DNA from: a phage
NCBI GenBank assembly: GCA_025823825.1
Contig: GCA_025823825.1_4720.1
Length of the DNA: 64,000 bases
Reading direction: 5' to 3' (one strand)
Shown here in pieces: positions 6,918 through 37,171 of the stretch; position 1 is the first letter of the stretch, and each line of letters starts with the position of its first letter. The notes under the pieces are model-generated. The model saw only the letters and a program-made list of their open reading frames with translations, searched no databases and was not told the DNA's origin. Made by a program: the position numbers and the translations under genes.

Positions 6918-9530
6918 TTAAGCGTCTGGTGTAAAATCAAAAGGAATGTCCGTACGAATGATATCATAACGTTTTCCTAGGAAATAAAACTCTTCGGGAA
7001 CCTGGCCGGGAATAATGCTATCGCCGATGAACTGCGGATACGCCCAGATGTACTGAGTGAGTCCTTCGAACTTATCCAGGTTATTTGCGTGGTTACCCAT
7101 GATACGTTTCCAGAGTTCGCGTTTATACGGTGTTTTAACATCGAATCCATAAAGCGGTGCAAGATCTTCACCAGGAACAAATCCCAGGTAATAATGGATC
7201 TGACTAACCGGGAAACCAAGCGTATCTCGCGGAATGGTGATCGCTTGCTCAGCCTTGGTGACATGCGTTTCAATAATCCAGTCGTAGCACTCCGAATAGA
7301 ACCGATCGAATTTCTCTGGGTTATACCACGCTTTGGGAAGATTCAGTTTCTCCGTGAACGCGTTCGACATGATCGTCGGCAAGAACGGAAGAACGCCGGT
7401 TTTGATCTGCGTGTATTTCGATTTTACCCGGTTAACCAAATTCCAGCAACTGTATCCTAATTGGTCGTTACAAAACTCAACGTAGAGATCGTAGTCACCA
7501 CCGGATAACGGGTTGTTAATATCACCGATGTCTGCGGCGTATTTGTTGGGATATCGGTTATTGAAAGCCAGTTTGGTTTGGTAATCGTAGATACACGGTT
7601 TGTTGTTCGCTGTATTGATCCACCACCAGGGTTCACCTATTTGCACACAAATGTCCTGGACATGGGGGTAGATGATATCAGCAAACGCGGTTAACACGTC
7701 CCCTAACCACGCCATCGCCTGTTGGTTACATGGAGACAGCAACCAGGACGGTGGTGTATATCCGGTTGCGGCGATGTTTCCTTCCCAATCCTGCTGCGCC
7801 CACTCGAACGGGCATGCTGTACTCATCAATTCGTAACTTAAACTGATGGTGACAGAGAAATGGTGTTTTGCAGCATATGCGGCGAAAGCTTCATGCCACG
7901 CGATACAGGGTGGATTTAATACATCCGTGGTGTTCACCAGTAACTTACCCGCACTTGGCGTCCAGACAGTATCGTAGAAATGCGACATTCCAACATAATG
8001 CACTAATTCATCTTGATACCCCGCATAAACCAGGTTTTCAAATACGCGCTCCGGCGTGATGTTGTAATGGTCATCGTAAGCGGTTATCGCACGAAGTTCG
8101 TGTGGTGTACAATGATGGCGATTAACCGTCATTTCTTGATACACCCCATCGATAGGAAGAATCTCGAGGGTTAAACCGAGGTCGATTGGCGTTTCCAGAT
8201 AGGTCGTTTCAGTCGCATCTTCCTTATAATGTCGAGAACTCATGCTGAACATCAACGACGTTACCGATTCGAGTTCGATAGGCTCGTCAGCATAGAACCC
8301 CGCCATTGCGTCATTGAAATCGATCGTTACGATTGCGCTTCTACCGTCTTCAGAGACATCGGTGGCGTATCGGGTTAATGAGATATACTGACGGCTATCG
8401 TCTTTGTGTACGATGGTTAGAACCGGCGGGTTTTCGGTATCTGCAAAGTTACGCTGATCGCCAGTAAACGTGATCTTCGCTTTAAAGATCAAACCGAATA
8501 ACGACGTCATGGGATCATACGCAATACAACCGTGATCCAGCGTATCCGTTGTCCGCCATTCTATCCCGACCAACCCGTTAGCGGTATGGCATCGCATATA
8601 CGCATTAAGGACCATGTCTTCACTGACAACCGCGAAGTTCTCTGTTGACTGACCGTTGATAATCCAATACATCGGTTGCCAGAGGTTACGCGTACCTTTT
8701 GCGTAGCGGTAGGTTGGTGCGCCTTTAGGGTTGCCATTATTGAGATGGAATACGGCAGTACCTTGATAATGGTCGTTCGTATTAATCGGAACACTGTAAG
8801 CATCACCGAGATCCGTACGTTCGACCTTCGTGACTGTTGCGTTTTCAAATAACCCACGTAGCGCCGGTAAACCGATATCTTCAGGCGCGTTTTCTCGACG
8901 AATCGCATCCGCGATGCGGTGGGCTAAGGCAGGGTAAATGACCTCACCCTGCTGTAGGTTTGCAAGACCTACAAAGCGATCGGGGTCGATGCTAGCAATC
9001 AATAACTCGACATCACCCTTCGTTCTATCGTCGTTAAGATATTTCAGTCCGGTAAGGTCAAGATGCTGAATAAGCGACAACAGGTTGTATTTACGGTTTT
9101 CAACAGTTAGTACAAGATCGCCTGCCCAAACCAAACTTCCCTCATCCGCTGTTACTTTAACGGATTGTCGGCCTGTGGTAGACGTTGTTGTCGTTTTATT
9201 TAATTGTCCTTGTAGGAAGTCGGTTGCGAGGTCAAAGGCAATGCCGTAACGGTCAGCGACCGCTTGCATGATTTCACGTAACTGGGTATCTTCTTCAATG
9301 ATAATCTTGACAGGTATTCCCAAGAACGCTTTAGCGAGGTCTCGTTTAACCAACGAGACGAATACGGATTTGTAGTATCGACTTCCATCTTTCCCTTTAA
9401 AAAGAATGGAGGTTGTTTCGGGTGCCGATAGAACACGTGCAAATTCAACATCGTCGAAAGTAAGAGAAAGTCCGTTTTTCTCGTTGGTTAATCTTAGTAT
9501 TTCATTTTGCGCGGTTTCATGTAACTTCAT
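6918..9530 (-). CDS. tail fibre/tailspike-like protein (870 aa) with shared N-terminal module
   Basis: N-terminal ~170 aa paralogous to 15425..15952, 16108..17862 and 55648..57102; GAGG 8 nt upstream of ATG. Confidence 0.6.
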   Translation of the reverse strand: MKLHETAQNEILRLTNEKNGLSLTFDDVEFARVLSAPETTSILFKGKDGSRYYKSVFVSLVKRDLAKAFLGIPVKIIIEEDTQLREIMQAVADRYGIAFDLATDFLQGQLNKTTTTSTTGRQSVKVTADEGSLVWAGDLVLTVENRKYNLLSLIQHLDLTGLKYLNDDRTKGDVELLIASIDPDRFVGLANLQQGEVIYPALAHRIADAIRRENAPEDIGLPALRGLFENATVTKVERTDLGDAYSVPINTNDHYQGTAVFHLNNGNPKGAPTYRYAKGTRNLWQPMYWIINGQSTENFAVVSEDMVLNAYMRCHTANGLVGIEWRTTDTLDHGCIAYDPMTSLFGLIFKAKITFTGDQRNFADTENPPVLTIVHKDDSRQYISLTRYATDVSEDGRSAIVTIDFNDAMAGFYADEPIELESVTSLMFSMSSRHYKEDATETTYLETPIDLGLTLEILPIDGVYQEMTVNRHHCTPHELRAITAYDDHYNITPERVFENLVYAGYQDELVHYVGMSHFYDTVWTPSAGKLLVNTTDVLNPPCIAWHEAFAAYAAKHHFSVTISLSYELMSTACPFEWAQQDWEGNIAATGYTPPSWLLSPCNQQAMAWLGDVLTAFADIIYPHVQDICVQIGEPWWWINTANNKPCIYDYQTKLAFNNRYPNKYAADIGDINNPLSGGDYDLYVEFCNDQLGYSCWNLVNRVKSKYTQIKTGVLPFLPTIMSNAFTEKLNLPKAWYNPEKFDRFYSECYDWIIETHVTKAEQAITIPRDTLGFPVSQIHYYLGFVPGEDLAPLYGFDVKTPYKRELWKRIMGNHANNLDKFEGLTQYIWAYPQFIGDSIIPGQVPEEFYFLGKRYDIIRTDIPFDFTPDA

Positions 9531-9552: not shown

Positions 9553-10194
9553 TTAGATGTACTGCTTACCGCCCACGAAGGAAGTTAACCAGTTCCCGCT
9601 GACGAGTTGTGATACCCAACCTGGAACGGCTCTACCATTCTGGCTCATGATGTTACCACACCAACCAGGGAATCCGGGACGGATGTAATAGAAAGTTAAA
9701 TTGTAGAGATGGCAATTCCATACCGCAACGTTATGTTTACCAGAAACCGCTTTAAAGATAAACGCGACAGGTAACGGAGACGATAACAATTCGGTCACAG
9801 GGACGGCTGACCAGTTCGCATTCGCGTTCCATGGTTGCCAGGTATGGCTACGCGAGTCACCGTTAACGTTACCGTTGCTACCGCGTCCGCCCGCGTTCCA
9901 CCAAAGCGATGGACTCATGTTCTTAAGTGAGGTAAATTGCTGTGGTGGAATATTCGGAATGATAACAGGGTTGGTACCTTGTCCGTGTTTCTTTTCTTTT
10001 GCGTTCACATAGCCGTTTATCGATTCCAGGTATTTGGTACCAGGATAATTGTTCTGGACTTGTGTCGCAATATCACGAACATCGAACGTCCAGCAGATCA
10101 TGGTGTTGTAGTAAGCATCGGTGTTGTCGTACCATGCGTTACCATCTTGTAAACGTGCGCCACTATTCGGTGTTTTATCTGTGTTTATAGCCAT
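9553..10194 (-). CDS. hypothetical protein, paralogue of 10306..10971 (possible fibre-associated adhesin)
   Basis: C-terminus RPGFPGWCGNIMSQNGRAVPGWVSQLVSGNWLTSFVGGKQYI nearly identical to that of 10306..10971. Confidence 0.55.
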   Translation of the reverse strand: MAINTDKTPNSGARLQDGNAWYDNTDAYYNTMICWTFDVRDIATQVQNNYPGTKYLESINGYVNAKEKKHGQGTNPVIIPNIPPQQFTSLKNMSPSLWWNAGGRGSNGNVNGDSRSHTWQPWNANANWSAVPVTELLSSPLPVAFIFKAVSGKHNVAVWNCHLYNLTFYYIRPGFPGWCGNIMSQNGRAVPGWVSQLVSGNWLTSFVGGKQYI

Positions 10195-10305: not shown

Positions 10306-10971
10306 TTAAATTGAAGTTAGATATTGTTTACCTCCAACAAACGACGTTAACCAATTACCTGAAACAAGTTGCGATGCCCAGCCAGGCACTGCCCTACCGT
10401 TCTGGCTCATCACGTTACCTGCCCATCCCGGAAAACCCGGTCGGAAAATATATACTTGAATATGTGTTAAAGCGTTATCATTACCACTGCCAACAGCAAC
10501 GTTACGACTCCCAGATGACGGGAAATATTCTTTTAAGAACAGAGGATCGGTTGCTAATAAAGATGCGGGCCAAGGGTTCGCGGATGCATCAACATCGAAT
10601 TCGGTCCATCGCCATTTACGTCCCGTGTCGAACCATGTCGATGTACCACCACCCCTCACGGCAAGATTGCGCGCATCACGGACATTATAAATTGATTCGA
10701 TGTTACGCCATCCACCTTTTGCAGCGTTTGCTGCATAGCAAACCGCATTACCACCATTCTTCTTCTCGTAAACGGTTCGTTTGATATGAACACGGTCGAT
10801 GAACGCTTCACCGTATTTGTTGACGAGCGTTTGTGCGATATCACGAAGATCGTGCATGTGAAAAGCGATGTCTTCGTTATGGAACCATGTTGTCTGGTTC
10901 CAGACGGTACCGTTTGGTTCGGCACACATCGATCGGATATTGTTGCGTTGATTAATCGCGATAAAACCCAT
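10306..10971 (-). CDS. hypothetical protein, paralogue of 9553..10194
   Basis: Shared C-terminal block; start set at ATG 10971 (MGFIAINQ...) just after a terminator hairpin and T-rich tract. Confidence 0.55.
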   Translation of the reverse strand: MGFIAINQRNNIRSMCAEPNGTVWNQTTWFHNEDIAFHMHDLRDIAQTLVNKYGEAFIDRVHIKRTVYEKKNGGNAVCYAANAAKGGWRNIESIYNVRDARNLAVRGGGTSTWFDTGRKWRWTEFDVDASANPWPASLLATDPLFLKEYFPSSGSRNVAVGSGNDNALTHIQVYIFRPGFPGWAGNVMSQNGRAVPGWASQLVSGNWLTSFVGGKQYLTSI

Positions 10972-11026
10972 TGTATACCTCGTTCCTATTCTCAAAAAGG
11001 AAATTTCATACGATGACGCCATAGCA

Positions 11027-11056
11027 GCTCCTCCTTCCCTTACGGGTTGGAGGAGC
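11027..11056 (-). terminator. intrinsic terminator-like stem-loop (GCTCCTCC...GGAGGAGC)
   Basis: 8-bp GC-rich stem followed on the minus strand by a T-rich tract, downstream of 11065..11571. Confidence 0.5.
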
Positions 11057-11064
11057 ATACTTAA

Positions 11065-11571
11065 TTACTCGCTGATAACCTCAACGGAATTGGGATCAGC
11101 GATCATCGCACGGTCAGTAGAACAATTGAAGAAGACCATGCCGACACCATCGCCGTTCGAGTTCAGGGTTGAACTTACGTAAGACAGGGTTGGTTTATTC
11201 ATGCGGTAGAAGCGTTCGCTGGTAGCGGTATTGAACCCCAGATCAACGTAGTCTTTCACCGTGGTATACAACTGTGTGGATTCGAAAACGGTTACCGGAG
11301 AGTCGACGGTAAACTGACTACCTTCATCCACAACCAGAACTTTATCGTTCCAGATTTCAGTGGTTGAAAACTTCGGTTTCCAATGTTCGAATTCCTGGGT
11401 TGCTCCCCAGCAGGAATACACAGCGAGATTGCTGTTCTTCTCAACCGGTTTCAATCCCACCAGTTGTGTCAGGTCTTTATCCAGGTTCGGTAAGCCTTCC
11501 AGCGTAGCGCACCCACCCAGAGAAAGTACCATCAACATACCAAGAATAATCGCGCAGAGTTTCTTCATCAT
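11065..11571 (-). CDS. putative lipoprotein
   Basis: N-terminus MMKKLCAIILGMLMVLSLGGC has a signal peptide with lipobox-like LGGC. Confidence 0.6.
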   Translation of the reverse strand: MMKKLCAIILGMLMVLSLGGCATLEGLPNLDKDLTQLVGLKPVEKNSNLAVYSCWGATQEFEHWKPKFSTTEIWNDKVLVVDEGSQFTVDSPVTVFESTQLYTTVKDYVDLGFNTATSERFYRMNKPTLSYVSSTLNSNGDGVGMVFFNCSTDRAMIADPNSVEVISE

Positions 11572-11619: not shown

Positions 11620-12009
11620 TTACTTTTTGAGCGCTTTAAGTTCTTCTTCCAACGCTTCCACTTTTGCCGTAAGCTTCTGTACTTGTTTGATTAATGGAAC
11701 CACCAAACGTTCGTACATAACACCTTCAGCGACGAGTCCGTTAGAAGAAACGATAGCGGGGTCATCTTCTTCGGTTGCATCACGCCAGTGCACGTACTGC
11801 GGTGCGATCTCACCAACCTCTTCAGCAATCAACCCATACCAACCCCAATCCTTGTTGTCTGCTTCACATGTGGAACGATACCAAACAGGACGCATCTCCA
11901 ATACTTTATCCGCTTGTTCATCCGTGATATTCTCGATATCTTTCTTATAGCGACGCGACGACGTTGAACGAAACACATTGTTGATCCCAGAAACAGGACT
12001 GATATACAT
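11620..12009 (-). CDS. S74-type intramolecular chaperone domain protein (free-standing)
   Basis: SRRYKKDIENI...WYGLIAEEVGEIAPQYV...VMYERLVVPLIKQVQKLTAKVEALEEELKALKK matches the layout of the C-terminal chaperone domain of endosialidase-type fibres. Confidence 0.6.
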   Translation of the reverse strand: MYISPVSGINNVFRSTSSRRYKKDIENITDEQADKVLEMRPVWYRSTCEADNKDWGWYGLIAEEVGEIAPQYVHWRDATEEDDPAIVSSNGLVAEGVMYERLVVPLIKQVQKLTAKVEALEEELKALKK

Positions 12010-12058
12010 GTTAGCCCCGCTGGTTGTAGTGCTAATGTCCCATACCGCAAATCCGCCG

Positions 12059-15000
12059 TTACTCCCATTTTTTTACGATCAATGTGTTGGCAATAATGTC
12101 CAGGTTATTGTCGTAACCGGTTAATTGTCTTTCCGTTACATAACTGGATAGATTGACCGAGTAGTTCTTACTGTTATAACAACGACGCCATCCTGGGCTG
12201 TTGGTACTGCCATTATAGTTGTCGTAGCTATAAATGAACTCGGAGTTGGTTTTCGCACCACTGACGGAAGACGTGGTTGCGGTCGTAACACGGATGGTAT
12301 AGTTTGTCATCCCGAAGCTAACGACCTCGATAACAGCACCAGCCAGAGGGATAATACCGCACTTGGTTTCACTGTCTGGGATGTATGCGCTGTCGGCAGC
12401 TGCGAAGGAGCAACGTGCGACCCAGGCGCGGGTATTGAATGCACCTTGGTTTTGCAACAACGTGATAAACGATGAGGTCGTAATCGAGCTGTTATTATCA
12501 CCGGTGATCAACCAGCCGGTCGGGCATGCGGTTGCGCCAACGTTTTTCGCTGTTAACGTGATGTTCTGCGATCCGTCGAAGGCTACGCCACTGATAGTGC
12601 GCGCAGTCTGCAGTTTCGTCGCCGTTGCTGCGTTCCCTGATGTGTTCTGGTTCCCTGCGGCGTTAACACCCGGCAGATTGATATTCGCACTACCGTCGAA
12701 AGACACCCCACCAATGGTGCGGGCGGTTTTCAGTTTTGTCGCCGTGGCGGCATTACCGGTCGTGTCTTGGTTACCGGTGGTGTTTACCCCAGGTAGGTTG
12801 ATATTGGCCGTTCCGTTAAATGAAACACCACCAATCGTCCGTGCCGTTTGCAACTTCGTTGCGGATGCCGCATTCCCCGTGGTGTTTTGGTTACCTGTTG
12901 TATTCACACCTGGGATACTATCCTTAGATGTGTAGATCTGTGCCCATTCCGACCAGTTCGCATCTGATGCATCACGACGCGAACGTAGGTAAGCTGGAGC
13001 GTGTGCGCCTGAAGTACCTGACCATCCAATAAGGATCTCACCTTCACCTACTGCGGTTGCTCCTTTAAGATGAACAACGTTACCGTAGGCTGTAGGGTAT
13101 CCGTTATTGTACGCTTCATACATCTGGATGCCCGTATTGCTGCCCTGGGTCGCATTAGCTAAAGCGGTGACTCGTCCCATGGAAGCGAGCACGTTAATGC
13201 TAAAGCTAATATCAGTTGTACCATCAAAGGCGACCCCATTAATCTTCCGTGCTGTTTGGAGTTTCGTGGCAGTAGCCGCATTACCAGAGGTACTCTGATT
13301 ACCTGCTTTGTTCACGCCTGGTAAATCAATGTTGGCGGTTCCATCAAAGGACACACCCCCTATGGTTCTCGCCGTCTGAAGTTTTGTTGCTGAACCGGCG
13401 TTTCCGGAAGTGCTTTGATTACCCGCCGCGTTAACACCCGGTAGGTTAATGCTAGCAGAACCATCAAAAGAAACACCACCGATTGTGACAGCCGTTTTCA
13501 ATTTCGTGGCTGTCGCAGCGTTACCCGTTGTATTCTGATTGCCAGCTGCATTGACGCCAGGTAATGCGATATCAGCTGTGCCATCGAACGCGACACCGCC
13601 TATTTTACGGGCGGTTTGTAGCTTGGTTGCTGTAGCGGCATTACCGCTGGTATTTTGCGTACCGGCTTTATTTACACCGGGAAGATCGATGTTAGCAGAA
13701 CCGTCGAAGCTGACGCCACCTATTGTTCTTGCGGTAGCGAGTTTAGTTGCTGTGGTTGCAGCATTACCAGCCTTTAACCATTCGCCCCATGGGCCATCCA
13801 CGCCGTTCCATGAAGCTGTTAAACTACGTACGTAAATATTTCCTGTACGTACGGTGTAACGCTGTGTTCCACCGAATTGCCCAGCTGGGAGCACTTCGAT
13901 GTAACCTACTGCGTTTGCTTCAGGGAAATTGTGGGCAGCATCAGCATTCGTTGACGTTTGTTTGGACCAAATACCCACAGACGCTTCAACCGGACCGTAG
14001 GTATTTAGATTCGCATCGGTGGGAAGCTGTCCTCGGAAACGTCGGAATAATGAAGCTGTTAACCCCAACGTTGTTTGCATCCCTTCAATGCTTGACTGCG
14101 ATAAAAGCGCCCGAGCTGTCGACGTGATAGCCGCTAAAGCAACCTTATCCGTACCGGTAAAATACGGGAATTTGTTTGCTGAAGTTGCTAAACCTGAAAG
14201 GGCGGTCAGTAATGCGTTAAGGGGTTGTTTCCCAGCCAGCGCGTTAGTTACTGTTGTTGCGAAATTAGGGTCGTTGCCTAAAGCTTGAGCCAGCTCATTA
14301 AGCGTATTTAGCGCTTCTGGCGACGAGTCGATCAGTGATGCGATAGCACGCATCACAAATTCCGTGTTGGCGATCTGTTGACTGCTATCGTTATCTGCAG
14401 CCGTAGGTGCTGCTGGGATACCGGTGAACACAGGGTTATTAAGATCTGCCTTGAGAGCGATGAGACGTCTAAGCGCTTCGACATCGACTTTCAGGTTTTC
14501 CCATCCGACGAGATAACCATCACCGGTTGTATGATAACGGTTGTACCAAAAATCACCATTGACACCGAAATAGAATATTCCTTTCTCTTCGTATTGTGGG
14601 CCGGAACTGTTCCGTGATGAGCTAATGTATTTTATTTCGATAAGGCCGTCGAATACCACTCCTGGGATGATTTTATTATTTCCAGCTGGCTGTGATACTT
14701 GGTACATCCCCGGGGTTGCGGCTTTAACCCACGTTAAGAATTCTGTTACTCCGGCGCTACCACTGAAATTCTTAACGTCGGTAAGTATCGCCCCATAACC
14801 GAACATACCGGGTAGAGCAACTCGTCCGCTGGTACGGTCACGAATATTTGATGCGACGACAGGCAGCTGTTTACGAACATTGTTAACCGCCTTAGGTGTG
14901 GCCGATTTTGTCTCGTCATCGCTATCGATGGCGTTGCTCAGGATGGTCAGTCCTCGAGTATTTGTGGTCGCATCAGGAAGAAACGCGTTATCCAACACCT

Positions 15001-15418
15001 TAAGTTGTACAGCGCTCGTGTTACTAACAACGAGATACATCTGACAGTTAAGAACGCTGGATGCACCTTCAGTAGGCACCGGCTTATATCTTTCCGGTGC
15101 GCTGCAAACAGCGATCAGAACACCCTGATCGTCATACAGACCGATTTCACGTACCCAGAATCCACCTTGGTTTACAGGAATAATACCCTCAACAATAATC
15201 CTGGTTGTGTCATCCGTATCGACACGGATATTAGCAACTTCCCCACGATAAACTTCGTGTACGAGCGCTGTTTGACCAACAGCCGGTGTCGGTATCGACC
15301 CGTTACCATCGCCAACAGCAAAATGTGTGATTTTTAGTTTCTCGCCACCAGGAAGTAGTGCGGCGGCGATACGTTCAGCGCCTTTATCGGTAATGACCGT
15401 TTTATATGTTGTACTCAT
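12059..15418 (-). CDS. long tail fibre protein, P2 gpH-like N-terminus with tandem fibre repeats
   Basis: N-terminus TVITDKGAERIAAALLPGGEKLKITHFAVGDGNGSIPTPAVGQTALVHEVYRGEV and block IANTEFVMRAIASLIDSSPEALNTLNELAQALGNDPNFATT resemble P2 gpH; about ten repeats of ...GNAATATKLQTARTIGGVSFDGSANIDLPGVN... Confidence 0.85.
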   Translation of the reverse strand: MSTTYKTVITDKGAERIAAALLPGGEKLKITHFAVGDGNGSIPTPAVGQTALVHEVYRGEVANIRVDTDDTTRIIVEGIIPVNQGGFWVREIGLYDDQGVLIAVCSAPERYKPVPTEGASSVLNCQMYLVVSNTSAVQLKVLDNAFLPDATTNTRGLTILSNAIDSDDETKSATPKAVNNVRKQLPVVASNIRDRTSGRVALPGMFGYGAILTDVKNFSGSAGVTEFLTWVKAATPGMYQVSQPAGNNKIIPGVVFDGLIEIKYISSSRNSSGPQYEEKGIFYFGVNGDFWYNRYHTTGDGYLVGWENLKVDVEALRRLIALKADLNNPVFTGIPAAPTAADNDSSQQIANTEFVMRAIASLIDSSPEALNTLNELAQALGNDPNFATTVTNALAGKQPLNALLTALSGLATSANKFPYFTGTDKVALAAITSTARALLSQSSIEGMQTTLGLTASLFRRFRGQLPTDANLNTYGPVEASVGIWSKQTSTNADAAHNFPEANAVGYIEVLPAGQFGGTQRYTVRTGNIYVRSLTASWNGVDGPWGEWLKAGNAATTATKLATARTIGGVSFDGSANIDLPGVNKAGTQNTSGNAATATKLQTARKIGGVAFDGTADIALPGVNAAGNQNTTGNAATATKLKTAVTIGGVSFDGSASINLPGVNAAGNQSTSGNAGSATKLQTARTIGGVSFDGTANIDLPGVNKAGNQSTSGNAATATKLQTARKINGVAFDGTTDISFSINVLASMGRVTALANATQGSNTGIQMYEAYNNGYPTAYGNVVHLKGATAVGEGEILIGWSGTSGAHAPAYLRSRRDASDANWSEWAQIYTSKDSIPGVNTTGNQNTTGNAASATKLQTARTIGGVSFNGTANINLPGVNTTGNQDTTGNAATATKLKTARTIGGVSFDGSANINLPGVNAAGNQNTSGNAATATKLQTARTISGVAFDGSQNITLTAKNVGATACPTGWLITGDNNSSITTSSFITLLQNQGAFNTRAWVARCSFAAADSAYIPDSETKCGIIPLAGAVIEVVSFGMTNYTIRVTTATTSSVSGAKTNSEFIYSYDNYNGSTNSPGWRRCYNSKNYSVNLSSYVTERQLTGYDNNLDIIANTLIVKKWE
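12580..13790 (-). repeat. in-frame tandem repeats (~28-40 aa units) within the tail fibre gene, two blocks
   Basis: Repeated ATKLQTAR(T/K)IGGVxFDG motif in the translation; antisense shadow ORFs also repetitive; coordinates approximate. Confidence 0.6.
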
Positions 15419-15424
15419 GGCGTT

Positions 15425-15952
15425 TTATCCCGGGTAAATAGTGATGGTGTCACCAACGATAGTTGTAGCACCGGCGTAAAGATACGCTGGTGATGCCTCA
15501 CGTTGGTTTGTCACGATAAGATCCAGTCTCCCACGCCAAACCACGGAGGTATTCGCGATGGGAATCGAGATCTTCTTGGAAGTATCGTCACGAAAATTAA
15601 TGGCGGTAGCAAGGGTAACTGAATCAAAATCAACGTCGGGTTCAAAGTTGAATCCGTATTGATCTGAAATAGCTTGAATAACCGCTCTTATGGTTGTTGT
15701 TTCAACCGACTCCAAAACGATTTTTATCGGTATTCCTAGAAATGCTTTCGCGATATCACGTCGTGTGTAAGTGATAAAACTTTCACCACACCACCTTGTT
15801 CCTTCATTTGCTGTGACGATCACTTTTGCCCTGTTAGCACCAGAACTCCCATCCAGGGTTAAAGTGAGATCGGAGTTGCTGAATACACTACCGTTACGTT
15901 GGTTTATCAACGTAATAAGTTCGTCTTTCCATGGTGGGTAAAGTGAACGCAT
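15425..15952 (-). CDS. fibre adaptor module protein (shared N-terminal module only, ~175 aa)
   Basis: Start ATG 15952 (MRSLYPPWKDELITLINQRN) with GGAGGAGG 8 nt upstream; TAA is in frame with and 6 nt upstream of the fibre ATG. Confidence 0.55.
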   Translation of the reverse strand: MRSLYPPWKDELITLINQRNGSVFSNSDLTLTLDGSSGANRAKVIVTANEGTRWCGESFITYTRRDIAKAFLGIPIKIVLESVETTTIRAVIQAISDQYGFNFEPDVDFDSVTLATAINFRDDTSKKISIPIANTSVVWRGRLDLIVTNQREASPAYLYAGATTIVGDTITIYPG

Positions 15953-15992
15953 ATGCGCACCCTCCTCCAATAATCAAATTAAAATGCAAAAC

Positions 15993-16020
15993 GCCTCGAA
16001 ACCAGGGTGCGATTCGAGGC
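15993..16020 (-). terminator. intrinsic terminator (GCCTCGAA...TTCGAGGC plus T-rich tail)
   Basis: 8-bp stem, 12-nt loop, followed on the minus strand by GTTTTGCATTTTAATTT. Confidence 0.55.
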
Positions 16021-16107: not shown

Positions 16108-17862
16108 TTATGCTGCTACATACCCAGGCCAACGTTCTCTTGGCCAGTTTGTTGCGCCCTGTCCAACGTTGTCCTTACCAGAAGTTACATTACTTACATC
16201 CCAACCACTAAGATCCTGGTTAAATGCGGTGTTGTTACGCATCATGAGGTCGATATTACGTAATGATTGGGTATTCCAGCCGGAAATGTCTTGGTTGAAT
16301 GCCGTGTTGTAAGCAAACATGTTAACAACGTTTTGTAATTTTGAAGTGTTCCAGCCGCTAATATCGCCATTGAACTGCATGTTCGAGAACATACTGCTAG
16401 CATCGATAAGACTATCTGTTTTCCAGTTAACCAGCTTGTTCTCATCAAGTGCGTTGCAACTACTGAACATGTAACTCATGTTGTTAACTTTGGATACATC
16501 CCATTTATCTAACCCGTTACCAACGAACTCGTAACAAGCTTGGAACATCCAGCTCATGTCGGTAACCTGGCACACATTCCATTTGCTAAAGTCGAGGTTG
16601 AGTTTTGCGCATCCGGAGAAAGTTTTATACATACTGGTGATACGACTAACATCCCATTCTTGAATGTTAGGATCATTAAGTATAGATAAGAATTGGAACA
16701 ATCCGTCTAACGACGTCCATTTCTCTGGAATACGGTTTGGTACTGTACGGAGCGATGAAAGGTTATTGGTTGACGGAGAGCGGAACATACCGTTATCCCA
16801 ATTTACGATTTCCGTAATGTTGTACCCACGGATCGTTTGGCGTCCATTACCATTATACACAGACCCTGTTGCAGTTATTGTATATTCGTTTGTATCAGCA
16901 TACGTATATTCAGCCTGTGTAGGCCACTCACCTATTACATCCCTATTCCCATCACCCCAGTCAATGGAAATATCTATCCAACCATCAAGATCTAGGGTAA
17001 CGGTCCCGCCATTGGTCTTCAGGATGTATTTACCTGCATTGTCGGTATAATAACAAACAATCATCGCACCGTACAGGTTACCAATTTGCCAATCATCCTT
17101 TTGAGTTACCGCGATTTGTGCTGTACCACGCTGTAAGAAAAGTACCGTACGGTTCTCGTCAGTCTGTAGTGCGGTTAGTGCTTGAGTCTTATCATCGTCG
17201 GTAATTTCACCGGCTTCCATTAAAGCACTTAACATTCTTTCGAAGTACTCGATAGGCAACTGAGGTCCTACCGACATATCAACTGATGGAACAGTGAGAT
17301 CATCCAATGCTGCTGCCGTTGCGAGGACTAATGATCCCTTGGCGGTGTCTGTTTCTTGGAGGTAACGCAGTCCCGTAATCTGGTACGCTTGAATGATTGT
17401 AATCAGATCCAGTGTATCGTTAATGACCTGTACTTGTAAATGTCCAGACCAAACATAGCTGCTTTCAGCAATCGGTAATTCGACCGACTGAATACCCGAC
17501 GTTTCAAAACTGATCTTCTTATTAAGATCGGCTTCCAGGAAATCAACAGCTAGGTCGAAATTTATACCGTACTTCTCAGCGATGGAATCTACAATGTTCC
17601 TGAAAGCAACATCGGTACTTACGATGAAACGTAACGGGATCCCGGTGAACGCGTTGGCAATATCTCGACGAACATACGTGAGCGACTGCTCGAAGAAATA
17701 AGGACTGTTATCTCCAGGTTTGATGGTTACCTGGCATACTTCAGGATGTTCAGCTGGAATGAAAGATTCGAATTTAACGTCGGTTTCCTTCAACGATAGC
17801 ATGTTCTTCCGGTTTACCAACGCCAGAAGATCAGCTTTCCACCCAGGATAAACTGTAGACAT
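16108..17862 (-). CDS. tail fibre-like protein with shared N-terminal module and C-terminal BspA-like (DUF285-type) repeats
   Basis: Start ATG 17862 (MSTVYPGWKADLLALVNRKN) with GGAG upstream; C-terminal repeats WDVSxVxxMxxMFxxxxxFNQDISGWN. Confidence 0.65.
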   Translation of the reverse strand: MSTVYPGWKADLLALVNRKNMLSLKETDVKFESFIPAEHPEVCQVTIKPGDNSPYFFEQSLTYVRRDIANAFTGIPLRFIVSTDVAFRNIVDSIAEKYGINFDLAVDFLEADLNKKISFETSGIQSVELPIAESSYVWSGHLQVQVINDTLDLITIIQAYQITGLRYLQETDTAKGSLVLATAAALDDLTVPSVDMSVGPQLPIEYFERMLSALMEAGEITDDDKTQALTALQTDENRTVLFLQRGTAQIAVTQKDDWQIGNLYGAMIVCYYTDNAGKYILKTNGGTVTLDLDGWIDISIDWGDGNRDVIGEWPTQAEYTYADTNEYTITATGSVYNGNGRQTIRGYNITEIVNWDNGMFRSPSTNNLSSLRTVPNRIPEKWTSLDGLFQFLSILNDPNIQEWDVSRITSMYKTFSGCAKLNLDFSKWNVCQVTDMSWMFQACYEFVGNGLDKWDVSKVNNMSYMFSSCNALDENKLVNWKTDSLIDASSMFSNMQFNGDISGWNTSKLQNVVNMFAYNTAFNQDISGWNTQSLRNIDLMMRNNTAFNQDLSGWDVSNVTSGKDNVGQGATNWPRERWPGYVAA

Positions 17863-36561: not shown

Positions 36562-36936
36562 TCACCAGAGACGATTACCTTCCTCGTCCCACCACGCAAT
36601 CGCTTGTGTCGACTCAAATGAGTTAGGACGTAATACCATGCCCTTGCGATCAACGATTAATCGCAATTCCGTACCGAACCATTCAATCGAGATAAACAAA
36701 CCCTTCCGAATGATTGCTTGATAACCTGATAGCCGCTCAAAGAGTCGTTGAAAGATCTCATCATGCGAGCATGATGTTAACGCTTCTGAATAACGCTGCA
36801 TCGATCTTGTATCAACGGGTAAACGTGTTTTACAGTTCCACCACAACACAGCGTACATCAGTGCAGCACTACGCAATCGTAACGATTGAACAGGCGTTAG
36901 TTGTCGTCCTTCAACATCATCGATAATAACATACAT
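36562..36936 (-). CDS. hypothetical protein (124 aa)
   Basis: Minus-strand ORF. Confidence 0.4.
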   Translation of the reverse strand: MYVIIDDVEGRQLTPVQSLRLRSAALMYAVLWWNCKTRLPVDTRSMQRYSEALTSCSHDEIFQRLFERLSGYQAIIRKGLFISIEWFGTELRLIVDRKGMVLRPNSFESTQAIAWWDEEGNRLW

Positions 36937-37171
36937 TGCGTCTTATTCCGCGTCTGTTTTCTTAACATGGACACATTCCGCATCGATAGTCACGCCAGTA
37001 GAACGATTGGTCTCGTTGGTAGAATCAAATCCGCTGTTGAACAACATTGCGAACGTATTATTATCCATACGAGCAAAGGTCTCCGCAATACGATCGGGAT
37101 GAAAATCGGTGCGGTTGATGGTCGATTTCACAAAAACTCCTATAAACAAAAATTAATTATTGATGTTAAAA

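Follow-up and report, generated by a model that had tools for sequence, protein, structure and literature searches.

Does an in-frame stop codon between an adaptor-like gene and a tail fibre gene mark a broken fusion, a site of readthrough, or an ordinary boundary between two genes? This question is raised by a stretch of phage DNA of 64,000 nucleotides (GenBank assembly GCA_025823825.1, contig GCA_025823825.1_4720.1; its whole length is called the window below), on the minus strand of which an open reading frame (ORF) of 175 amino acids, referred to here as the module, is followed by the ORF of a fibre resembling gpH of phage P2. Both ORFs lie in one frame and TAA is the sole interruption between them. 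The original prediction, made from the sequence without database searches, had noticed this arrangement and proposed a recent split, low-level programmed readthrough, or two proteins that associate non-covalently. In our opinion the last of these is probably correct: the two proteins would be translated separately, and the module would act as a non-covalent adaptor bearing a tether of the kind found at the C-terminus of the P2 baseplate protein gpI. The in-frame stop is an ordinary inherited gene boundary. Two genes have been annotated at this place in Escherichia phage Goslar since 2019, and what is new here is the reading of the module as a domain-swapped adaptor.

Organization of the junction

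The junction reads ...ACT ATT TAC CCG GGA TAA AAC GCC ATG AGT ACA ACA TAT AAA... on the minus strand, and this direct reading confirmed that a single TAA and 6 nucleotides (nt) separate the adaptor-module ORF from the fibre in the same frame. Its elements are as follows.

15425..15952, minus strand: module ORF, from ATG at 15952 to TAA at 15427-15425, 175 amino acids (aa)
15425..15427, minus strand: TAA stop codon of the module gene, corresponding to the gene I stop in P2-like phages
15419..15424, minus strand: spacer AACGCC, 6 nt, between the module TAA and the fibre ATG
12059..15418, minus strand: fibre ORF, ATG at 15418-15416, end at 12059, 1119 aa

The window comes from a Goslar-like chimallivirus. 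In the fibre region its DNA shares 87% identity with that of Goslar, a nucleus-forming jumbo phage of the Chimalliviridae, where the corresponding junction, between gp091 (gp91) and gp090 (gp90), is TAA AACACC ATG, that is, TAA, 6 nt and ATG as in the window. A search of complete Escherichia coli genomes gave no match for the region, which is therefore not a prophage region.

Sharing of a frame by adjacent ORFs is common in this DNA. Among the neighbouring ORF pairs of the same strand in the window, 22 of 74 are in the same frame, as are 13 of the 39 pairs whose gap lies between -10 and 30 nt, and a second same-frame pair with a gap of exactly 6 nt is present (36943-37149 / 36562-36936). The shared frame of the module and the fibre does not exceed chance frequency; it is a functionless by-product of the 6-nt spacer.

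The C-terminal tail of the module

The module ORF had been described as encoding only the N-terminal domain that it shares with three other proteins of the window. This description fails for its last ~25 residues, which resemble the tail of P2 gpI and not DUF7941, the family to which the remainder belongs.

15503..15952, minus strand: module residues 1-150, DUF7941 N-terminal domain, chimallivirus-specific (Pfam PF25613)
15428..15502, minus strand: module residues 151-175 (REASPAYLYAGATTIVGDTITIYPG), homologue of the C-terminal tether of P2 gpI, which is flexible (RDIPGYLFAGGVAYDGDVITVYPG)

Phage 186 has a 176-aa gene, the homologue of P2 gene I, directly upstream of its gpH homologue. When the module family was aligned with 186 gpI by hhalign, a probability of 91% was obtained (E 1.1e-6), and the match was confined to the C-termini, with module residues 148-175 paired with gpI residues 149-176 and both reaching the C-terminus. 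A tblastn search of 50,697 phage records (2.3 Gb) with the 34-aa tail matched, apart from Goslar, 61 records, which with about two exceptions come from Peduoviridae-type phages; among the annotated matches listed, all were in the gene of gpI (tail/baseplate protein I). A hidden Markov model (HMM) of four gpI proteins, run against the six-frame translation of the window, found the module ORF at E 1.7e-4, the next best value being 0.24, and was matched only at its positions 145-176. Thirteen of the last 21 module residues are identical to those of P2 gpI.

The register is maintained across the gene boundary. P2 has ...RDIPGYLFAGGVAYDGDVITVYPG, stop, gtgaggaata, MSIKFRTVITTAGAAKLAAA, and the window has ...REASPAYLYAGATTIVGDTITIYPG, stop, aacgcc, MSTTYKTVITDKGAERIAAA, so that ...GDVITVYPG-stop-gtgaggaata-MSIKFRTVITT... 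of the former stands in register with ...GDTITIYPG-stop-aacgcc-MSTTYKTVITD... of the latter. YPG-TAA ends gpI of P2, 186 and ENT4 in the same register as the module. The spacers of P2-like phages differ in length (10 nt in P2 and 186, 7 nt in BIS20, 11 nt in ENT4), their frames vary, and they contain GAGG. With the end of the tail aligned to the end of gpI, and fibre residue 1 to Met1 of gpH, the TAA descends from the stop codon of gene I and the ATG from the start codon of gene H.

The resemblance ends where the tail ends. The module lacks the body of gpI (Tail_P2_I, residues 7-143): PF09684 (Tail_P2_I) found no match in it even at E <= 10, 186 gpI itself scoring 176 bits. The module is thus not a member of the gpI family, but carries the gpI tail only; in a collection of 255 proteins, to which the best 150 of 2850 DUF7941 representatives belonged, the tail was found only in gp91-type proteins. 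The module is a chimera, composed of a DUF7941 N-terminal domain and a C-terminal tail of the P2 gpI type.

The homologues of the module indicate that the protein is maintained in this form. A large protein database contained 35 relatives, at identities from 99% down to 61%, and all were 175 or 176 aa long except for a few truncated or partial entries. The ratio of nonsynonymous to synonymous changes (dN/dS) of the module gene, 0.15-0.27, demonstrates purifying selection, and the proportion of synonymous differences (pS) reaches 0.77 against the most distant relative, which means that synonymous sites are near saturation while length and stop are unchanged. Residues G167, D168, T171, I172, Y173, P174 and G175 are invariant in 21 module homologues. 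The motif GDxITxYPG at the terminus varies little or not at all among the gp91 homologues and is common to gpI of P2, 186 and ENT4, which argues for a retained function.

The module's N-terminal domain

Residues 7-150 of the module matched PF25613 at profile positions 7-154 of 276 with 61.5 bits (cut-off 27; E 1.1e-16). An AlphaFold2 model had a mean predicted local distance difference test (pLDDT) of 81.6, with block means of 78-93 across residues 1-150, and pLDDT below 50 at residues 155-175, which are predicted to be disordered when the protein is alone. In a Foldseek search of the Protein Data Bank (PDB) with this model, the only significant match was in 9xqd, the phiKZ outer peripheral baseplate, to a chain of 150 residues (E 5.9e-7; template modelling scores 0.56/0.63); a direct sequence search of the module against PDB gave nothing significant. 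The chain modelled in the phiKZ peripheral baseplate is the DUF7941 protein gp127, residues 1-150, and it was proposed that the family sits at the peripheral baseplate, gp91 being listed among ten DUF7941 proteins of Goslar (10.64898/2026.04.21.720040).

Both by sequence profile and by the fold of its N-terminal part, the module belongs to DUF7941. It aligns with the N-termini of Goslar gp22, gp23, gp31, gp33, gp34 and gp93, and of three paralogues in the window, whose existence the original prediction had reported and which were all found.

6918-9530, minus strand: DUF7941 paralogue, 870 aa
16108-17862, minus strand: DUF7941-DUF285 paralogue, 584 aa
55648-57102, plus strand: DUF7941 paralogue, 484 aa

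In each of them the N-terminal DUF7941 domain is fused to a putative receptor-binding domain. It had been supposed that a fusion of the module with the fibre would reproduce this architecture. That expectation does not hold: the paralogues keep a DUF7941 linker and the module has the gpI tail in its place, its residues after ~150 aligning neither with gp22, gp23, gp31, gp33 or gp34 nor with the linkers of the paralogues. Since the DUF7941 linker has been proposed to dock on the N-terminal domain carried by the next protomer, the module could serve as an acceptor for another DUF7941 protein, but not as a donor.

An exhaustive search of representatives found 2850 DUF7941 clusters. Some of the proteins, as noted at entry P0164 of this search, have tandem copies of the N-terminal domain; many show two or three matched stretches, and one protein of 3467 aa had 20 of them. 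Such tandem proteins would be covalent versions of the proposed head-to-tail filament. In the distant DUF7941 contexts of pSal-SNUABM-04 and SPLA10, we found arrays of virion-protein paralogues and no gpH-type fibre.

The fibre gene

The fibre gene begins with the domain by which P2 gpH is attached to the baseplate, and sequence collinear with the distal part in relatives lies beyond the ORF, in another frame.

14996..15418, minus strand: fibre residues 1-141, P2 gpH-type N-terminal (baseplate-attachment) domain (Pfam PF12571)
12059..14995, minus strand: remaining part of the fibre ORF, fibre repeats and distal part (from the ORF list and translation)
12068..12074, minus strand: A7 homopolymer, A6 in seven close relatives
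11620..12072, minus strand: Peptidase_S74 (intramolecular chaperone) segment, +1 frame relative to the fibre (Pfam PF13884, E 1.6e-9)

PF12571 scored 148.8 bits, fibre residues 1-141 corresponding to profile positions 1-140 of 150. In tblastn comparisons with gpH of P2, Wphi, 186 and other phages, the fibre N-terminus was 44-48% identical from residue 1, and the match to gpH of 186 (K) started exactly at the annotated start codon. Among the phage records with a gpH-type N-terminal domain that were listed (~118 of 432), Goslar was the only jumbo phage; together with the restriction of the tail to gp91-type proteins, this fits a single acquisition in the Goslar-like lineage.

Farther along the protein, PF03406 matched residues 151-181. 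Positions 12500-14100 of the minus strand encode many copies of a fibre repeat of about 40 residues (...GNAATATKLQTARTIGGVSFDGSANI.LPGVN...). In relatives the fibre is from 967 to 1268 aa long with a varying number of repeats, and already among the near-identical loci L020-L027 lengths from 967 to 1265 aa were found. This range apparently reflects gain and loss of repeat units.

At the site of the A7 run, A6 was found in L020-L024, L026 and L027, and GAGAAA in L005 and L025; the fibre of each of these loci runs on into a C-terminal Peptidase_S74 domain. The extra A shifts the frame, so that the fibre ORF ends as ...IVKKWE-stop (12059-12082) and the Peptidase_S74 chaperone domain is cut off from it, appearing as a separate 129-aa ORF (11620-12009, start ATG at 12009). 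The +1 frame continues ...KNGSNGGFAVWDISTTTSGANMYISP..., collinear with the fibres of L005 and L002, and in all eight near-identical loci PF13884 lies inside the fibre ORF. The A7 run is one of three things: an error in sequencing the homopolymer, a frameshift that is real, or a site of slippage.

Proposed attachment of the fibre

The way in which the module could hold the fibre is suggested by P2. According to a preprint on the P2 virion (September 2026), each baseplate wedge consists of (gpJ)2-gpI, and gpI is flexible from R153 on; this part was modelled as a strand between two gpH chains, in the N-terminal adaptor domain of the fibre, and the C-terminal tether of gpI is reported to hold the gpH fibre. 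The segment R153-G176 of P2 gpI is exactly the one aligned with module residues 151-175. Attachment of a fibre to the C-terminal part of a wedge subunit of the gp7/gpI class has also been stated for Milano, diffocin and E217; a review on pyocins has nothing on this point. The suggestion that two proteins associate non-covalently at the locus in question thus finds support, with the gpI-type tether as a candidate mechanism.

The scenario that we favour starts with the acquisition of a P2-type fibre cassette by a Goslar-like chimallivirus. With the upstream crossover inside the donor baseplate gene I, the last ~25 codons of this gene, its TAA, the short spacer and the whole fibre gene would have arrived together. 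The gene I tail would have been fused in this event to a resident DUF7941 N-terminal domain, giving rise to a chimeric adaptor of 175 aa, the orthologue of gp91. The DUF7941 domain of this adaptor would plug into the peripheral baseplate of the chimallivirus or into its DUF7941 filament system, and the disordered gpI-type tail would insert into the fibre (the orthologue of gp90) at its gpH-type N-terminal domain, which is trimeric. A more specific version, which we put forward only tentatively, would make the gp91-type protein a chain-ending DUF7941 unit that accepts the linker of another DUF7941 protein and holds the gpH-type fibre by its gpI tether; the fibres would then hang from the DUF7941 network or the peripheral baseplate, and not from a (gp6)2-gp7 wedge.

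Several points weigh against the module being a fibre adaptor, and the main one is quantitative. Label-free mass spectrometry of Goslar virions gave ~1.2 copies of gp091 (2 peptides, 17% coverage), ~43 copies of gp090 and ~52 copies of the chaperone gp089 (Table S4, 10.64898/2026.04.21.720040), whereas one tether per fibre trimer predicts ~14 gp91. The protein was possibly under-measured or lost during CsCl purification; it may also act only in assembly, anchor a minority of fibres, or bear a non-functional tail. The P2 model of gpI and gpH is based on low-resolution density and AlphaFold, and the contact between the module tail and the fibre is proposed by homology to that model. Moreover, the tail has only ~25 residues, and the single tblastn matches to it are each weak (E 0.3-0.6), so the case for homology is a combined one, made by hhalign, the HMM, the specificity of the matches, the end-to-end register and synteny.

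If the tail were a mere passenger, the module would be just another subunit of DUF7941 filaments or of the baseplate, its gpI-derived end would no longer bind the fibre, and the fibre would be attached otherwise. The rarity of gp091 in Goslar virions, ~36-fold below gp090, speaks for such a possibility. So does the frequent occurrence of stand-alone DUF7941 proteins of ~160-196 aa; one of them, gp23 (19.1 kDa, ~2140 copies, the most abundant), has the same layout of the domain and a short tail. On the other hand, the near or full invariance of the final nine residues, GDxITxYPG, which are shared with gpI and have persisted in spite of saturated synonymous divergence, is hard to explain without a retained function, and the module and the fibre N-terminus are syntenic at every locus, forming one similarity block. 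We consider a passenger tail rather unlikely.

A smaller likelihood still is attributed by us to a role mainly in assembly, where the module would transiently hold or nucleate the fibre N-terminus and be mostly absent from the finished virion. This would agree with the low copy number in virions in spite of one of the strongest ribosome-binding sites of the window, and with the tight adjacency of the module gene to the fibre gene. P2 offers no precedent for it, gpI being a stoichiometric subunit of the baseplate wedge; the DUF7941 N-terminal domain is a structural module of phiKZ and Goslar virions, and the gp91 orthologue was detected in purified virions.

If the module is indeed an adaptor with a gpI-type tether, a foreign fibre could be transplanted onto an unrelated baseplate by co-transfer of the 25-residue tether of its donor. 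The locus would provide a sequence-level example of a docking peptide that travels with a fibre between unrelated phage families. In the preprint on the cryo-electron microscopy of Goslar (10.64898/2026.04.21.720040), the tail fibres and most of the peripheral baseplate were unplaced, and in a term search of its text neither gpI nor phage P2 nor a tether turned up. For Goslar-like jumbo phages, a gpI tether on gp91-type proteins is a concrete, testable hypothesis of how fibres are held, and in host-range engineering a tag of ~25 residues might suffice to attach P2-type fibres to other scaffolds.

The stop codon and the reading frame in related phages

Junctions at 25 related loci, from isolate genomes and metagenomes, were read directly or, for L020-L027, inferred from gene coordinates. 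The stop codon is TAA at all 25. The spacer, by contrast, is variable. Apart from the window, 17 loci have 6 nt: L005, L008, L010-L012, L014, L017, L020-L027, and Goslar with its duplicate record. L006 and L013 have 7 nt, whereas L002-L004 and L015 have 8 nt. In these longer versions the fibre lies in another frame, and readthrough would reach another stop after 4-8 codons. The comparison with related phages, which had been suggested as a way to decide between fused and split forms, showed that two genes are kept and that their frames differ in several lineages, an outcome which the original prediction had named among those that would refute it. Since the stop and the length of the module are conserved and the spacer and frame are not, neither readthrough nor a recent split is supported.

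Low-level readthrough of TAA, which would produce a covalent module-fibre fusion in the lineages with the 6-nt spacer and thus a few self-anchored fibres per virion, seems to us very improbable. It is true that the two ORFs agree in frame, with no further stop between them, in the window, in Goslar and at 16 more loci, and that the gp091/gp090 signal of ~3% in Goslar virions equals numerically a readthrough of a few percent. Yet the lineages with 7- and 8-nt spacers, which keep both genes, could not make such a fusion, and the boundary itself was inherited from P2-like phages in which frames differ. Programmed readthrough would also lack its usual attributes at this site. The stop is UAA at all 25 junctions and not the leaky UGA or UAG; TAA is recognised by both release factors and is the least leaky stop codon in E. 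coli. The downstream frame is neither kept nor open in the relatives with 7- and 8-nt spacers. No significant RNA structure that could be stimulatory was found at the junction (fold z = -1.74; 9 of 200 shuffled sequences fold as well), no Rfam family matched there, and no tRNA gene, which could encode a suppressor, is present within the 64-kb window. Among the rows listed in the Goslar peptide table there were no junction or N-terminal peptides.

The idea of a recently split gene, that is, an ancestral DUF7941-fibre fusion broken by a nonsense mutation, can be dismissed almost entirely: the paralogues are indeed fusions of DUF7941 to receptor-binding domains, and a one-codon split does occur in a neighbouring paralogue of one relative, but the stop and the 175-176-aa length persist through deep divergence (homologues at 61-99% identity), the stop aligns with that of P2 gene I and the start with that of gene H, and a local HMM found no gpH-type domain in the best 150 of the 2850 DUF7941 representatives. 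Homologue searches with the fibre N-terminus and with a DUF7941 profile yielded short proteins only, from which nothing about fused architectures follows.

The one-codon split just mentioned was found in L024 (GCA_958305435.1, 3091-4845), in which the DUF7941-DUF285 paralogue bears a GAA to TAA nonsense change at codon 170, within the linker, and is called as two ORFs of 169 and 412 aa, in the same frame and 6 nt apart. This is a genuine recent one-codon split, but in the neighbouring gene. Goslar gp93 and gp92 were considered as a second example of this kind and dropped, as gp92 has a DUF7941 module of its own according to the preprint; Pfam did not detect DUF7941 in gp92.

Two relatives with altered modules were also noted. 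In L005 (5426-5956) and L006 (2024-2554), that is, in proteins P0032 and P0033, the first ~65 module residues are those of the DUF7941-DUF285 paralogue, and the recombination point lies at the shared RRDIAKAF motif (window 15763 / 17648); this paralogue is absent from L005. Homologous recombination between paralogous N-terminal domains, removing a receptor-binding gene, is indicated by these features. On the 3.2-kb contig of L006 (2024-2978), what comes 7 nt after the module is a 138-aa ORF of a Caudo_TAP chaperone, which starts with MSTSY like the fibre and then continues as chaperone sequence; the fibre body appears to have been deleted.

Expression signals and neighbouring genes

The following two signals lie ahead of the module gene.

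15960..15968, minus strand: Shine-Dalgarno sequence GGAGGAGGG of the module gene, strong
15981..16020, minus strand: terminator-like hairpin, downstream of the DUF285 paralogue and ahead of the module gene

The energy of the duplex formed by the module Shine-Dalgarno sequence with the 3' tail of 16S rRNA is -12.6 kcal/mol, which ranks second among 51 genes of the window, and that of the fibre gene is only -4.1 kcal/mol (rank 40 of 51). No good Shine-Dalgarno sequence is present in the AACGCC spacer, from which the GAGG of the P2 spacer has been lost. A strong ribosome-binding site of the module, a weak one of the fibre and the short distance between the genes suggest translational coupling of the fibre gene to the module gene.

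The hairpin consists of GCCTCGAA, a 12-nt loop and TTCGAGGC, followed by GTTTTGCATTTT; it escaped the automatic scan because its loop is longer than 8 nt, and it is kept in Goslar. The block of similarity to Goslar starts at 16120 of the window and covers the hairpin, the module and the fibre N-terminus, which were therefore inherited together. A scan for sigma-70 promoters gave fewer matches than in shuffled sequences and says nothing in the case of a phage that has RNA polymerases of its own.

The whole receptor-binding cluster is a mosaic hot spot. The flanking backbone (20500-19577 and 10246-5921) shares 96-97.5% DNA identity with Goslar, the module and the fibre N-terminus (16120-14148) share 86%, and the upstream gene at 16108-17862 has been replaced outright. 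The paralogue at 6918-9530 contains two domains of the 'non-contractile tail sheath' family of N4, the N-terminal one (Pfam NCTSP_N) and the TIM barrel (TIM-barrel_NCTSP), and matches the Gp64 chain of PDB 9lc0 (E 2e-30) and a non-contractile tail sheath chain; it is a podophage receptor-binding module on a jumbo-phage anchor. Just downstream of the fibre cassette, a 168-aa ORF (11065-11571, minus strand) begins with a signal peptide of lipoprotein type (MMKKLCAIILGMLMVLSLGGC). Its Goslar orthologue, gp088, has an estimated ~737 copies per virion (Table S4, 10.64898/2026.04.21.720040), which is unexpected for a lipoprotein-like sequence. The adjacent ORFs of 213 and 250 aa (9553-10194 and 10306-11058, minus strand), for which Pfam gave no match, are almost identical over a C-terminal stretch (...RPGFPGW.GN.MSQNGRAVPGW.SQLVSGNWLTSFVGGKQY), and Goslar has one gene (gp087) at their position. 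They are a local pair of paralogues within the cluster.

Comparison with known systems

The likeness to the A1 readthrough protein of phage Qbeta, in which a structural ORF is followed by an in-frame coding region, is one of appearance only. Qbeta ribosomes pass a leaky UGA into an extension that lacks a start codon. At the present junction the stop codon is UAA, the gene that follows begins at its own ancestral ATG, and the shared frame is not conserved in relatives.

Goslar (vB_EcoM_Goslar, NC_048170) offers the closest comparison, its gp091 and gp090 being direct orthologues, at 88% and 86% amino-acid identity, of the module and the fibre; both Goslar proteins were detected in purified virions. 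The two phages differ in the distal half of the fibre, Goslar having a Gly-rich C-terminus and a separate Caudo_TAP chaperone, whereas Peptidase_S74 is found in the window and in most relatives. They differ also upstream of the module, where gp93 and gp92 in Goslar stand in place of the DUF7941-DUF285 protein of the window.

With the DUF7941 family at large, represented by Goslar gp22 and gp23 and phiKZ gp126 and gp127, the module shares the N-terminal domain in both sequence and fold. Goslar gp23 resembles it further in size (~19 kDa) and in having this domain and a short tail. The difference lies in the linker typical of the family (...DxLxxVLAxNVAxGF..., or GLxY in long forms), which in the module has been replaced by the gpI tail.

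The gpI-gpH pair of P2 and 186 (Tail_P2_I; also PA0619 of pyocin R2, and the T4 gp7 class) contains a wedge-building Tail_P2_I body, in place of which the module has the DUF7941 N-terminal domain; no gpJ-like gene adjoins the module, and the Shine-Dalgarno sequence of the P2 spacer has been lost. What the two systems have in common is the gene order and the boundary itself: in both, an extension of the gpI type is encoded directly upstream of a gpH-type fibre, with a gap of 6 nt in the window and of 10 nt in P2 and 186, and the sequence runs through ...GDxITxYPG-TAA and a short spacer into ATG-S-x-K-(F/Y)-K-T-(V/I)-I-T.

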